From: Mustelus asterias
Lineage: Eukaryota
Length of the DNA stretch: 64,000 bases
Assembly: GCF_964213995.1 (NCBI RefSeq)
Contig: NC_135823.1
Coordinates: forward strand, 35,154,001 to 35,218,000
Direction of reading: 5' to 3'
Of this stretch, positions 11,950 to 62,730 are shown piece by piece. Both the position numbers and the translations under genes were made by a program. The stretch's first letter is position 1. Each line of letters opens with the position of its first letter. The notes under the pieces are model-generated. The model was given only the letters and a program-made list of their open reading frames with translations. It was not told the DNA's origin and searched no databases.

Positions 11950-14540
11950 AGCATATTTATCAGGAAATGGAAGGGAGGGAATCAAGAAAATAACAATCAC
12001 TTGGGAAGTGGTACTGAGCAAATTGTTGGAGCTACCAGCTGAGAAGTCTCCAGATCCTGATTGACTTAATTTGAGGGTCTTAAAAGAAGTGGCCTGTGAG
12101 ATAGTTGAAGCATTAATTTTAATTTTCCAAAACTCCTTAGATTCCAGGAAGGTTCCGTTGGATTGGAAAGTAGCAAGTGTAACTCCTTTGTTCGAAAAGG
12201 GAGAGTGGCAAAAAGCAGGAAACTACAGGCCAGTTAGCTTAACATCTGTCAAAGGGAAATGTTAGAAGCTATTATTAAAGACACTAAAGCAGGGCACATA
12301 GATAAGTTTAAAGTAATCAGGCAAGAGTTCACATGGTTTTGTGAGGCGGAAATCATGTTTAACTGATTTAGAATCATAGAATCATAATGACAAATGCGAG
12401 GTTATTCACTATGGAAGAAATAATAGCAAATTGGATTATTATCTAAATAGAAAAAAATTACAACATGCTACTGTGCAAAGGGACCTGGAGGTCCTTGTGC
12501 ATGTGACGCAAAAACCCAGTCTGCAGGTGCAACAGGTGATCAAGAAGCCAAATGGGATGTTGGCCTATATCGCAAGGGGGATAGAATATAAAAGCAGAGA
12601 TGTCTTGCTGCATCTGTACAGGGCATTGGTGAGGCCGCAGCTGGAATACTGTGTGCAGTATTGGTCCCCTTATTTGCGGAAGGATATATTGGCCTTGGAG
12701 GGAGTGCAGAGAAGGTTCACCAGGTTGATACCAGAGATGAGGCGTGTTGATTATGAGGAGAGACTGAGCAGATTGGGTTTGTACTCATTGGAATTTAGAA
12801 GGCTGAGGGGGGATCTTATAGAGACCTATAAGATAATGAAGGGGCTGGATAGAGTAGAGGTGGAGAGATTCTTTCCACTTAGAAAGGAAGCTAGAACTAG
12901 AGGGCACAGCCTCAAAATAAAGGGGGGCCAGTTTAGGACAGAGTTGAGGAGGAACTTCTTCTCTCAGAGGGTGGTGAATCTCTGGAATTCTCTGCCCACT
13001 GAAGTGGTGGAGGCTACCTTGTTGAATATGTTTAAATCACAGATAGATGGATTCCTGATCGGCAAGGGAATTAGGGGTTATGGGGATCAGGCGGGTAAGT
13101 GGAACTGATCCACTTCAGATCAGCCATGATCTTATTGAATGGCGGGGCAGGCTCGAGGGGCTAGATGACCTACTCCTGCTCCTATTTCTTATGTTCTTAA
13201 CAGCCCGGAGACAGGTCCTTCAGCCCAAACTGGGCCATGCCGACCAAAGTACCCATTTAAGCTAACACCATTTGCCTGCATTTGGCCCATATCCCTCTAA
13301 ACCTTTTCTATCCATGTATCTGTCCAAATGCCTTTTATTGGATTTATAGGAGTTGTTTGAAAAATATATGTAATGAATAAAGCGGAAATGGTGGATGTAC
13401 TACACTTAGATGTCTAGAAGGCATTTGATAAGGTGCCACATCAAAGGTTACTGTGGAAAATAAAATGTAGGTGTAGGGGGCAATATATTGAAAATCTGAT
13501 AGAAGATTGACTGGCTCACAGGAAACACAGAGAAGACATAAATGGGTCATTTTCTGGTTGGTAAGATGTAATAAGTGGTGTGCCACAAGGATCAGTACTG
13601 GGGCCTCAACTTTTTACAGTTTATATAAATGTTTTGAACGAAGGGACCAAAGATATGGTTGCTAAATTTGCTGATGGTACAAAGATAGATAGAAAAGTAA
13701 GTCGTGAAGAGGGCATAAGGAGGCTACAAAGGGATATAGATAGGTTGAGTGACTAGATAAAGACCTAGCAAATAGAGTCTGATATGGGAAAATGTGAAAT
13801 TGTCCTTTTCAGCAGGAAGAATGAAAAAGAAACATACTATCTAAATGATGAGAGATTGCAGAGCCCTGGATGCAGAAGGATCTGGGTATTCTAGTGCATG
13901 AATCCTAACAGGTTAGTATGCAGGTACAGCAAGGATTTAGGAAAGTAATAGAATGTTATTGTTTATTCCGAAGGGGAAGAAATACAAAAGTAAGGAGGTT
14001 ATGCTTCAGTTATACAGAACACTGGTGAGACAACATCTGGAATACTGGTCTCCTTATTTAAGCAAGGATATAAATGCATTGGAAGCAGTCCAGAAAGGTT
14101 TACTAAACTAATACCAGGAATGGGTGGGTTGTCTTATGAAGAAAAGTTGGATAGGCTAGGCTTGTATCCGTTGGAGTTTAGAAGATTAAGAAGCAACTTG
14201 ACTGAACATATAAGATCCTGAGGAGTATTGACAGGATGAATGTGGAAAGGATGGTTTCTCTTTTGGGAAAATCTAGAACTAGGAGTCACTGTTTAAAAAT
14301 AAGGAGTCATCCATTTAAGCCAGAGATGAGGAGAATTATTTTCTTTCAGAGGGCAGTGAGTCTTTGGAACAAAAGGTGGTGGAAGCAGAGTCTTTGAATA
14401 TCTTTAAGGTGGAACTAAATAGATTCTTGATAAGCAAGGCGTAAAAGGTTATCATGAGAATTATGAAGTTCAGATTACAATGATCTTATTGAATGGCAGA
14501 GCATGCTTGAGGTGTCGAGTAGCATTCACCTGCTCCTAAT
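11950..14540 (+). mobile_element. Nested CR1 LINEs: old copy (11950-12370 + 13340-14540) containing a minus-strand CR1 tail, itself split by a younger CR1 (12388-13198)
   Basis: ORFs 12071-12265 (LIFQNSLDS..VPLDWKVASVTPLF) and 12431-13108 (uninterrupted 225-aa ORF2 C-terminus); old RT resumes after 13340. Confidence 0.88.
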
Positions 14541-43054: not shown

Positions 43055-44960
43055 ATTATGGCAAGATCTGCCAGACATAATAGGCTACGAGATGAAGGCA
43101 TGTAAAATCGCCGGCTCCAACGCACCCCTCCCTGATGAGCTTAATGCATTTTACGCCCGTTTTGAGCAAGAGGTCAGCGAGAGCATGCCCTCCACCCTGG
43201 AAGCCTCGGATGAACCTGTATCTGAGGCCACTGTTGCAGATGTCAGAGCAGCTTTCTCGAAGGTCAACCCACGGAAAGTGACTGGGTACCTGGACGAGCA
43301 CTCAGATCCTGCACGGATCAGCTGGCGTGGGTATTCGCAGACATCTTCATCTCTTTACAACAATCTGAGGTCCCTATCTGCTTCAGGAAGACGACCATCA
43401 TCCCAGTACCAAAGAAAAGCCAAGTAGCATGCCTTAATGACTATCGTCCTGTGGATCTGACATCCATCATCATGAAGTGCTTCGAAAGGTTAGTCATGGC
43501 ACAAAACAGTTCCAGCCTCCCGGACTGCCTGGATCCGCAACAGTTGGCCTACTGCCGCAACACATTCACAGCAGACTTCATCTCCCTGGCCCTGCACTCA
43601 GCCTCAGAACACCCAGATAACAAAGATACCTATGTCAGGCTTCTATTTATTGACTACAGCTCAGCCTTCAACACCATTATTCCCATTAAACTCATTTCCA
43701 AATTCCATGGCGTGGGCCTCGGCACCTCCCTCTGCGACTGGATCCTGAACTTCCTAACTCTCAGACCACAATCAGCAAGGAGAGGCAACAACACATCCTC
43801 CACGATCATCCTCCACACCGATGCCCCACAAGGCTGTGTTCTCAGCCTCCGACTATACTCCTTATACACCTATGACTGTGTGGCCAAATTCCTCTCCAAC
43901 TCTATTTTCAAGTTTGCTGATGACACCACTGTAGTGGGTCGGATCTCAAACAATGACGAGACAGAGTACAGGAATAAGCTAGAGAATCTGGTGAATTGGT
44001 GTGGTGACAATAATCTCTCCCTCAATGTCAACAAAACAAAGGAGATTGTCATCGACTTCAGGAAGTGTAGAGGAGAACATGCCCCTATCTACATCAACGG
44101 GGCCGAAGTAGAAATGGTCGAGAGCTTCAAGTTTTTCTGTGTCCAGATCTCCAACAACCTGTCCTGGTCCCCCCCATGCCAACACTGTAGTTAAGAAAGC
44201 CCACCAATGCCTCTACTTTCTCAGAAGACTAAGGAAATTTGGCATGTCTGCTACGACTCTCATCAACTTTTACAGATGCACCATAGAACGCATTCTTTCT
44301 GGTTGTATCACAGCTTGGTATGGCTCCAGAGTGGTGAATCTGTGGAACTCTTTGCTGCAGAAGGCTGTGGAGGCCAGGTCATTGAGTGTCTTTAAGACAG
44401 AGATATAGGTTCTCGATTGATGAGGAGATCAGGGGTTATGAGGAAAAGGCAGGAGAATGGGGATGAGAAAAAAAAATCAGCCATGATTGAATGGTGGAGC
44501 AGACTCGATGGGCCGAGTGGCCTAATTCTGCTCCTATGTCTTATGGTCCTATGCTCTGCCCAAGATCGCAATAAACTACAAAAGGTCATGAATGCAGCCC
44601 AATCCATCACGCAAACCAGCCTCCCATCCATTGACTCTGTCTAAACTTCCTGCTGCCTCGGCAAAGCAGCCAGCATAATTAAGGACCCCGTGCACCCCGG
44701 ACATACTCTCTTCCACCTTCTTCCGTCAGGAAAAAGATACAAAAGTCTGGGGTCACGTACCAACCGACTCAAGAACAGTTTCTTCCCTGCTGCCTGACTT
44801 TTGAATGGACCTACCTTGCATTAAGTTGATCTTTCTCTACACCCTAGCTATGACTGTAACACTACATTCTGCACTCTCTCCTTTCCTTCTCTATGCTTTG
44901 TCTGTAAGCAAGAAACAATATTTTTCACTGTATGTTAATACATGTGACAAATCAAATCCG
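43055..44960 (+). mobile_element. Rex1/Babar-type LINE (RT to 3' end), frameshifted, with a CR1 tail inserted at ~44327-44547
   Basis: ORF 43451-44194 has [12 protein letters not shown]...APQGCVLS...[12 protein letters not shown] motifs; ends in aaatcaaatc. Confidence 0.9.
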
Positions 44961-59995: not shown

Positions 59996-61407
59996 ACTCT
60001 GAGAATGCTGCCTGCAATTCCCCTCTCCTGTCTGGCTCCTGCTGCTGTGGACATCGACACTGTTCATTGATGGAGCCGAAACTTGTGTGCCTGAACTTCC
60101 TCCCTTCCCTTTCCTGAGCCTCAGCTTGTTCTAGCCAAGGGCTGCAACATGATGCCAGGTCTGATTGATCAACAATAAGTAGAGAACTGAAGAGTGCCAG
60201 TGTTACAGGACAGGAGCCAGAGAGCAGCTGGTGCCAGAGAGTCCCTGAGATGCTAGAGCATGTTCAGGAATGTGAGTGGAGTTAAAGTCTGCTTGGGTGC
60301 ACAACAATGTACAGTCACTGATAACAGAATATGTTCAGATGTATTAGAAGGAGTTTAAAATCTACGGGGAGTAAGAGAATGTTTGGTGTATCTGAAGGGA
60401 GTTGGAACTTGTTCAGATATATCTAAGGGAAGCTTTAATATGTTCCATTGTATCTGAGGTAAGTTAATGTATGTTCCAATCTATCTGAGTGGTGTTGCAA
60501 TATATCTCCCTGGGAGAGGAGGAATGAAACTTTGGAAAATAGAAACAAAATGGAAAACTAACAATCTGCAAAGCAGCAGGAATAAGACAAGAGGCAGTGA
60601 CAGAGTATGGCAAAGGGATGAGGAAAATGATATCAAGTAACAGAAAATGAAAAAGAGGATGCAAGTGAGCAACAACAGCTTTGAGCTGCATCACAGTTTG
60701 TGTCAAAGGTCAGCTCAATGTCACATTAATTCTGATAATTAGTTTTTTCATAGTCAATATCATGCATAATTTAGAATTCTCATTCCCTCTCTAATTGTTC
60801 TGTTTGTCTCGTAATACTGGAAGATTGTTTAGTACTGTGTTTAACATCTGTTGTTTGCCTTCTCTCTTGGGCCCTTTTCTGCATCCTTTGATATATTTTA
60901 ATCTGTTTCAGTAAATTCCTGCACTCCTCTGAGAATTTCCCCTCTTATCTTATGTTTTCTGCAGTTTTTCTTGCTTTCAGTTACCTCATTTATCCACTTT
61001 AGGGATTATTTGTTACGTTGATATTTAATTTTCTTGAGTTGTATACTTATTCTTTTCACGGGAATGTGAGAAACCTTAGTGGTGATATTGATATTCAAAG
61101 ACATGACATTAGTGACAGGGGTTTGGGGGAACAATATTCTAGAGTCATGTCCCTAAGAAGGAAGCCATTCAGCCCATTGTGCCTGTGCTGGTTGCTTGAA
61201 AGGGCTAACCAATTAGTCCATTCTCTTGATCTTTCCCCATAGCCCTACAAAATGTCCCTTCTCGAATATATATGTATTTCAATTCTAACTAGCTCCTTTG
61301 TGTTGATTTTCACAGAGGAAATCATGGGCTCAATTTCTAAAACACAAGTGTAATTTCCAGAGAAGGCTGAAGAAATGATAAGGATGTTAAACACTGCAAA
61401 TAAGACA

Positions 61408-61720: not shown

Positions 61721-62340
61721 AGATACTCAGAGGAAAATAAGCCATATGAACTGCACTCTAGGCTATTTCTACATTAAAATGGTGACTACACTAAAAGTGC
61801 ATCACTGGCTATAAGCCCCCTGGCAAATCCTGAAGTTGTGAAAGACATGAGGCAAATGCAAGTTCTTTCCATAATTCATAGAATCCCTACAGTATAGAAG
61901 GAGGCCCTTCGGGTCTGCACTGACCTCAATCCCACCCAGGCCCTTTTCCTGTAACCCCACATATTTCCCCTGCTAAACCGCTGACACTAGGGTCAATTTA
62001 GCATAGCCAATCAACCTAACCATAGCTGTCCAATCAAATTAGCACCCTGGCTTTCTCCATGTCTTTGTTACCTCTGGTTTCAACTATTCAATGCTCTCCC
62101 ATCCCACCTCCTAATCCTCCACTTTCCATAAACTTAATCTTGTTAAAAACCCTGTTGCCTGTATCCCCTCGCTTGTTCTGGTTCAACTCTCGCCAGAGCC
62201 TTGCACTTTCCTATTTCTGTGACATCCTCACAACTCATTCCCCCGCTCCACCCTGCCTCCACAACCCTCATCCTCACCCATGCAACAATTTAAAACTCAG
62301 CTCTGAATAAGTCAATGCTCGTCACTCGTAATGTCTCCTG

Positions 62341-62646
62341 ATTTATTTATTCCAATTCAATCAAATCAAGTCCAAATCAGAGTCTCAACAAGTGAGACAT
62401 TCCCGATCCAAGCTGACAAGACAGGGCTCTCACCACCTGTCTTTGGCTTGATCTACATGACCCAAGCTGATTGGAGTAGGCATTGCACCTCCTCCAAGGC
62501 TTGAACGTATTTGCATCTTAGCCAAAAGGCCGAGATGCCGCTTTTAAAAATTGCCTCAAATGAAGCTAAAATGTAACCTAATGACTTCAACCAAGTACAG
62601 CATGTCAATACTACACTTGATCTTAGCCAAAAGGCCGAGAAGCGAT
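62341..62646 (-). mobile_element. U2 snRNA-headed retroposon (candidate SINEU-like element) with 11-bp TSD
   Basis: Starts ATCGCTTCTCGGCCTTTTGGCTAAGATCAAGTGTAGTAT (U2 nt 1-39); second U2 nt 7-27 copy at 62515-62535; TSD AATGTCTCCTG at 62330-62340 and 62647-62657. Confidence 0.88.
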
Positions 62647-62730
62647 AATGTCTCCTGTTATGCCTCGACATCCATTTTTGACTGATTTTGCCCCTGAGGT
62701 ATGTTGGGATTTTTTTTCCTAATAAAGGTG

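Follow-up and report, generated by a model that had tools for sequence, protein, structure and literature searches.

A U2 snRNA-headed retroposon family in the shark Mustelus asterias with likely sources at the Keno target site of U2 genes

The window analysed here is a stretch of 64,000 nucleotides from the genome of Mustelus asterias, and near its end it carries a 306-nt element on the minus strand (62646–62341; Table 1). The initial annotation had described this element as beginning exactly at U2 snRNA +1 and following U2 for 39 nt, the whole being bracketed by an exact 11-bp target-site duplication (TSD). Comparison with the genome's own U2 gene confirmed this start and head, beyond which the two sequences diverged. 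Both copies of the TSD were recovered, and a twelfth TSD base was ambiguous with U2 +1. U2 was the sole Rfam family found in the window at gathering score. At E ≤ 1, the element resembled U2 alone, with no tRNA, 5S, 7SL, or ribozyme similarity, and the one further match, at chance level, fell outside it.

All four hairpins named in the initial annotation were found in the element. Its body folded better than shuffled sequences (z = −2.5), with three of 200 shuffles equally good. An internal copy of U2 stem-loop I, identical at 23 of 24 positions (element nt 109–132), had been overlooked. The element had also been said to lack an Sm site, which is correct for the canonical site; however, an A-U5-A4 run lies between two hairpins (nt 95–105), and Rfam aligned it to the Sm position of U2. 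Elsewhere in the window, a weak 66-nt match (74%) to the 3′ part of the element was present on the minus strand at about 60860–60990, approximately 1.3 kb from the element, and is possibly an old fragment. Open reading frames resembling LINE reverse-transcriptase fragments, recognized by eye, occur at 879–1445, 12431–13108, and 43451–44194. Among public sequencing runs, 21 entries from 11 studies contained part of the window, with none listed as RNA, and five large runs from two organisms had about half of its sequence words in common; such matches do not speak to range or expression.

Table 1. Features of the U2-headed element in the window and its flanks.
Feature	Position	Strand	Evidence or remark
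5′ target-site duplication, 11 bp	62647..62657	-	sequence comparison
U2 snRNA head, nt 1–39	62608..62646	-	39/39 vs. own U2 gene; Rfam RF00004
Non-U2 body and tail, subfamily A	62341..62607	-	96.6% identity to subfamily majority sequence
Conserved A-U5-A4 run flanked by two hairpins; non-canonical Sm-like position, Pol III-terminator-like T run	62542..62552	-	exact in 74/97 aligned bodies
Second, internal copy of U2 stem-loop I; perfect 6-bp closing stem	62513..62538	-	
Hairpin with constant stem and subfamily-variable loop	62471..62497	-	
Long interrupted hairpin; A-T/G-C double change (n = 1) between subfamilies, inner stem extension covaries	62405..62453	-	
3′ hairpin	62382..62398	-	
Tail: short T/G-rich repeats, then A-rich run at the end	62341..62381	-	
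3′ target-site duplication, 11 bp	62330..62340	-	

The 18-nt 3′ motif of the element had 5,275 exact matches in the genome and the subfamily-A head/body junction had 698, while reversed-pattern controls gave 0 for both. The junction of the window copy, which belongs to subfamily A, is thus shared by hundreds of copies in a family with distinct TSDs. A DNA search of the same genome returned 2,534 candidates; 40 were scored, and all 40 were near-full-length with 94–100% identity. Since the 18-mer was retained in 19 of 30 copies picked by their junction, we arrive at a rough estimate of 8,000 copies for the family. A truncated U2 pseudogene or a one-off chimera was excluded by the thousands of family members and the 698 exact junction copies. 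The earlier view that the window element integrated as one unit, and is not a simple truncated U2 pseudogene, stood in light of its 11-bp TSD and the genome-wide family.

Among the first 30 motif matches on C1, picked by position, 21 start at U2 nt 1–15, two at nt 29–38, and seven within the body; inspected by eye, none of these 30 extends into U2-gene flank. The collected loci, a biased set, held 109 distinct copies, with a head in 98 and a start at +1 in 40. TSDs of at least 8 bp were found in 50 of the 98 headed copies and were 8–19 bp long in 46 of those 50. Many variants of the head/body junction occurred in this collection. The insertion-target consensus showed a weak AT-rich bias for T before and A after the insertion point, blurred by A-tails. 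A neighbouring copy less than 700 bp away was counted by eye for 23 of the first-listed 100 motif matches, often in the order element-TSD-element-TSD.

Bodies from 97 copies fell into four groups (50, 34, 6, and 4 members) and three singletons, with members 95–97% identical to their group majority and 87–92% identity between groups. For the group majority sequences, folding z-scores ranged from −3.2 to −5.8. The covariation check suggested in the initial annotation gave constant stems and variable loops; a single A-T/G-C double change was seen, and stem extensions covaried. Variation affected eight of 112 paired columns and 26 of 73 unpaired ones, a contrast with some circularity, as the four sequences compared also served to predict the structure. 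Three of the four subfamilies end in AAAGTAT plus a T/A run, as does the LINE described below; subfamily A has no AAAGTAT tail. The element is a short (<500 bp), A-tailed, multicopy unit with a common structure, and represents a real retroposon family of several thousand copies with at least four subfamilies that share hairpins.

U2 genes of two types were located. Type-1 genes lie on C24 in a 1.83-kb tandem array and an 8.03-kb array, and each mapped 8-kb unit holds a 5.2-kb LINE between U2 13–58 and U2 38–191. Type-2 U2, which scored 175 bits over the full model, forms 448-bp units at C21:28.05–28.08 Mb, and in this cluster full-length LINE copies sit seamlessly behind an entire type-2 spacer plus U2 1–33. 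Upstream of U1 (six loci shown) and of both U2 types, positions of about −53 to −42 hold a shared short motif that, by eye, we take to be the PSE. An octamer-like element was noted at about −200 in U1 and about −232/−244 in type-1 U2; the 300 nt upstream of type-2 U2 contained none.

The 3′ flank of the LINE is the published Keno 3′ target, U2 nt 38/39. Its ORF1 encodes ZCCHC3-type RNA-binding domains and a zinc knuckle, and its ORF2 encodes APE endonuclease, RT, and zf-RVT domains; the best solved relative for ORF2 was human L1 ORF2p, and a protein search with ORF1 gave no homologue at E ≤ 1e-10. We call the LINE Keno-like on the basis of its domains and target site. The initial annotation had named both Keno and Utopia as inserting site-specifically in U2; the APE domain of the LINE at the U2 site agrees with Keno and does not resemble Utopia. 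Mapped LINE copies were interrupted or broken, the longest ORF2 stretch being 1144 aa. Specificity appears loose, since the LINE tail had 596 matches genome-wide, mostly dispersed, versus 22 tails adjoining the U2 site (counted with a slightly shorter motif), 15 of which are in one amplified array.

The initial annotation had predicted a copy consisting of U2 upstream region, U2 head, element, and U2 from nt 38 onward, and this arrangement was seen in five places. These copies are seamless at U2 +1 behind a type-1 or type-2 upstream region, and they share their insertion point, U2 nt 38/39, with the Keno-like LINE that is abundant in the same U2 clusters. At C24:43060550, the copy follows a 600-nt type-1 upstream region (98.3%) and is decayed, with an internal deletion and at most 89% identity to any other copy. 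At C21:28064531, the type-2 spacer matches the reference unit, itself derived from this locus, at 100% and its neighbours at 98–99%, and U2 38–185 follows behind. The other copies bearing a promoter region are at C14:62230144, C1:80334615, and C8:80287728. Exact joins of the element tail to U2 39–52 numbered nine (control 0), and are rare compared with the 5,275 motif matches. Neither exact-pattern searches with the two known flank types nor the 40 scored matches turned up a subfamily-A copy that bears a promoter; the nearest link is L103, at 89.5% to the window body.

In several dispersed copies, the TSD encloses 7–93 nt from the upstream flank of a U2 gene together with the element. L103 has U2 6–48 and 36 nt of flank within a 13-bp TSD, and L176 has U2 12–52 and 93 nt within a 16-bp TSD. 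L109 and L110 (U2 8–43, 13 nt of flank, 18-bp TSD) lie in near-identical places and count as one event. L173 has 7 nt of flank and a 16-bp TSD, and is weak alone, because the search pattern already specified five of those 7 nt. L171 and L172 have U2 1–40 or 24–50 plus 4–5 nt of flank, and no TSD was found for them. In L103, L109, L171, L172, and L176, the U2 piece preceding the flank ends at nt 40–52, and none extends above +1. L095 has U2 33–53 in front and U2 38–58 behind, inside a 13-bp duplication (by eye).

Two composites were also observed. On C14, 1.66 kb with three elements lies within an 18-bp TSD, in the order U2 98–185, spacer, element, U2 38–53, 32 nt of flank, element, U2 38–185, part of a spacer, element, and A tail. 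On C1, a 10-bp TSD encloses LINE tail, U2 38–185, spacer, element, and LINE tail. These composites are best read as putative retrocopies of read-through transcripts of the U2 array, in which the promoter region would be carried along with the element. Because U2-gene flank or spacer occurs inside TSD-flanked retrocopies, the U2-embedded copies were sources. This supports, for the family, the master copy in a U2 gene postulated by the initial annotation. The LINE has a comparable dispersed copy, L177, with 92 nt of type-2 flank. The type-2 flank begins at about −92/−93 in both L176 and L177, and this position may be where read-through RNA starts or is processed.

Sequence establishes the family and its TSDs, the seamless position of copies behind U2 upstream regions, the use of one insertion site by both element and LINE, and the retrocopies with U2 flank and spacer. 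From these, we consider it likely that this is a non-autonomous family whose sources reside in U2 genes at nt 38/39, with Pol II transcribing them from the host U2 promoter and the RT of a Keno-type, U2-targeting LINE copying them. Pol II would initiate at U2 +1, or read through from the preceding tandem U2 unit, to give an RNA of head, body, and tail. The LINE ORF2 protein would recognize the poly(A) or tail of this RNA, and Keno ORF2 would reverse-transcribe it mostly off-target, yielding promoterless copies, the window copy included. That copy is probably inert. On occasional landings at U2 nt 38/39, the cDNA of the 39-nt head could anneal to the target U2 gene, restoring a seamless promoter, head, and body and renewing the masters, as postulated for R2. 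The many junction variants would be explained if each such landing could establish a new head/body junction.

An alternative is that various promoters in the flanks drive transcription of the body and that template switching to U2 RNA adds U2 heads repeatedly, the U2-embedded copies being dead ends. Recurrent head addition is documented in Kojima 2015 (PMC4494074) and proposed there for crocodilian SINEU; many junction variants exist in the present genome, and the extra U2 piece 5′ of L103, L109, L171, L172, and L176 could arise in this way. However, one junction is present in 698 exact copies, so heads are inherited, and the flank and spacer in TSD-flanked retrocopies lie outside mature U2 RNA, pointing to a U2-embedded source. 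We therefore regard repeated template switching as improbable. Even less probable is a standard Pol III SINE driven by a cryptic A/B-box promoter within the element. In a scan with consensus box sequences, three of the four subfamily majority sequences had B-box-like 9-mers, but no body had an A box, and the subfamily that was most frequent in the position-picked sample lacked a B box. Every body also has two to three T4–T5 runs in its first 90 nt that would terminate Pol III, and the lack of tRNA, 5S, or 7SL similarity in Rfam likewise argues against such an origin.

It is also conceivable, if rather unlikely, that the U2-gene transcripts are real but that another L1/Tx1-type LINE makes most dispersed copies, especially those of subfamily A, with Keno delivering only the rare U2-site insertions. 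An A-tail and TSDs mostly of 8–19 bp would suit any L1-like enzyme, and subfamily A has no shared tail motif. Against this, the Keno-type tail is itself mostly dispersed, the LINE has similar TSDs, and LINE tails share sites with both A and B copies of the SINE. Two of 30 LINE tails, those listed first on C1, are part of the C1 composite, and five of the remaining 28 have a SINE directly behind them, within about 70 bp; chance expectation is well under 1% at approximately two copies per Mb. Outside the U2 head, comparison of the SINE with one local Keno copy gave no stretch of at least 18 nt above 80% identity, only the short terminal motif being common to both. An internally deleted Keno was excluded by this absence of long homology to the one local copy.

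A bolder extension of U2-gene residence with Keno-type copying is a self-renewing snRNA mimic, which we put forward as a doubtful but possible reading. The head would serve as a homology arm behind U2 promoters, read-through retrocopies would export promoter-bearing masters to other chromosomes, and the conserved U-run between two hairpins would recruit an Sm ring and trimethyl cap, giving the RNA an snRNP route back to the nucleus.

The closest known snRNA-headed SINEs for comparison are SINEU-1, -2, and -3, which Kojima 2015 reported in crocodilians alone, leaving their promoter and transcription as an open question (PMC4494074). The shark family resembles SINEU in being short and A-tailed, with a U2-derived head, repeated U2 pieces, internal oligo-T, and no internal promoter, as well as in its candidate Tx1-type, Keno-related LINE partner and tandem insertions around the TSD. 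SINEU targets Mariner-N4_AMi (PMC4494074), whereas the shark element enters U2 genes at the Keno site and has traceable U2-embedded sources, which set it apart from SINEU as described. In the available text of PMC4640811 and PMC6136364, Keno is a U2-targeting LINE of the Tx1 clade with its 3′ target at nt 38/39 and a U2 head on full-length copies. The present element has the same target, a U2 head, and a short 3′ motif in common with Keno, but it is non-coding and, beyond the head, has no long homology to the local copy. Utopia, as characterized in the available portion of PMC4640811, uses a restriction-like endonuclease at the same U2 site; the local LINE shares that site but has an APE domain.

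By analogy, the closest mechanism may be that of the R2 SIDEs of Drosophila, which the available text of PMC3414825 presents as internal deletions of R2/R1 with an HDV-like ribozyme, residing in 28S genes (Pol I). PMC3774820 postulates that upstream 28S sequence kept in R2 RNAs gives precise 5′ junctions. Both the SIDEs and the shark element are non-autonomous, reside in a multicopy RNA gene, and carry upstream target sequence, and dependence on host-gene transcription is proposed here. Unlike the SIDEs, the element is not a LINE deletion, has no Rfam ribozyme, occupies a Pol II snRNA gene, and is found at thousands of off-target sites. It may thus work like SINEU in its head and like an R2 SIDE in its host-gene promoter. 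Searches of openly available main text yielded no U2-headed SINE beyond crocodilians and no Keno-dependent SINE; a Repbase or Dfam entry is possible. No U2-headed SINE is named in passages of PMC5381603, which reviews vertebrate TEs, of the shark genome paper PMC10468316, or of PMC5786205, and in PMC4176376, "Tx1" refers to mutant names irrelevant to the LINE clade.

If the proposed cycle is true, snRNA-headed SINEs would be represented by a second system, and the R2 SIDE lifestyle would have its counterpart under Pol II. Named source loci in U2 genes, together with retrocopies that record their origin, make the open transcription question for snRNA-headed SINEs testable at five loci. The U2-promoter model also suggests how Keno itself may be transcribed. 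As a young family with clean TSDs, the elements are in addition a source of presence/absence markers.

Additional observations concern the U2 clusters and other snRNA-derived sequences. In the type-1 array at C24:43.02–43.05 Mb, several units have gene-disrupting duplications of U2 nt 15/18–37 (L066:5124–5330, L071:2158–2364, and others), which are perhaps scars of abortive Keno insertions spread by array homogenization. At C24:44.81–44.94 Mb, the 8.03-kb unit, comprising an intact U2 gene and a Keno-interrupted U2 fragment, is tandemly amplified about 15-fold, and ORF2 is broken in the mapped units. At L068:3635–3720, the 5′ end of a LINE lies behind U1-like and U2-like fragments, as reported for crocodilian Tx1-Mar. 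Rough first-look searches of the whole genome gave approximately 60,000 candidates for U1 and 135,000 for U2, and U1-headed repeats may also be present in this genome.
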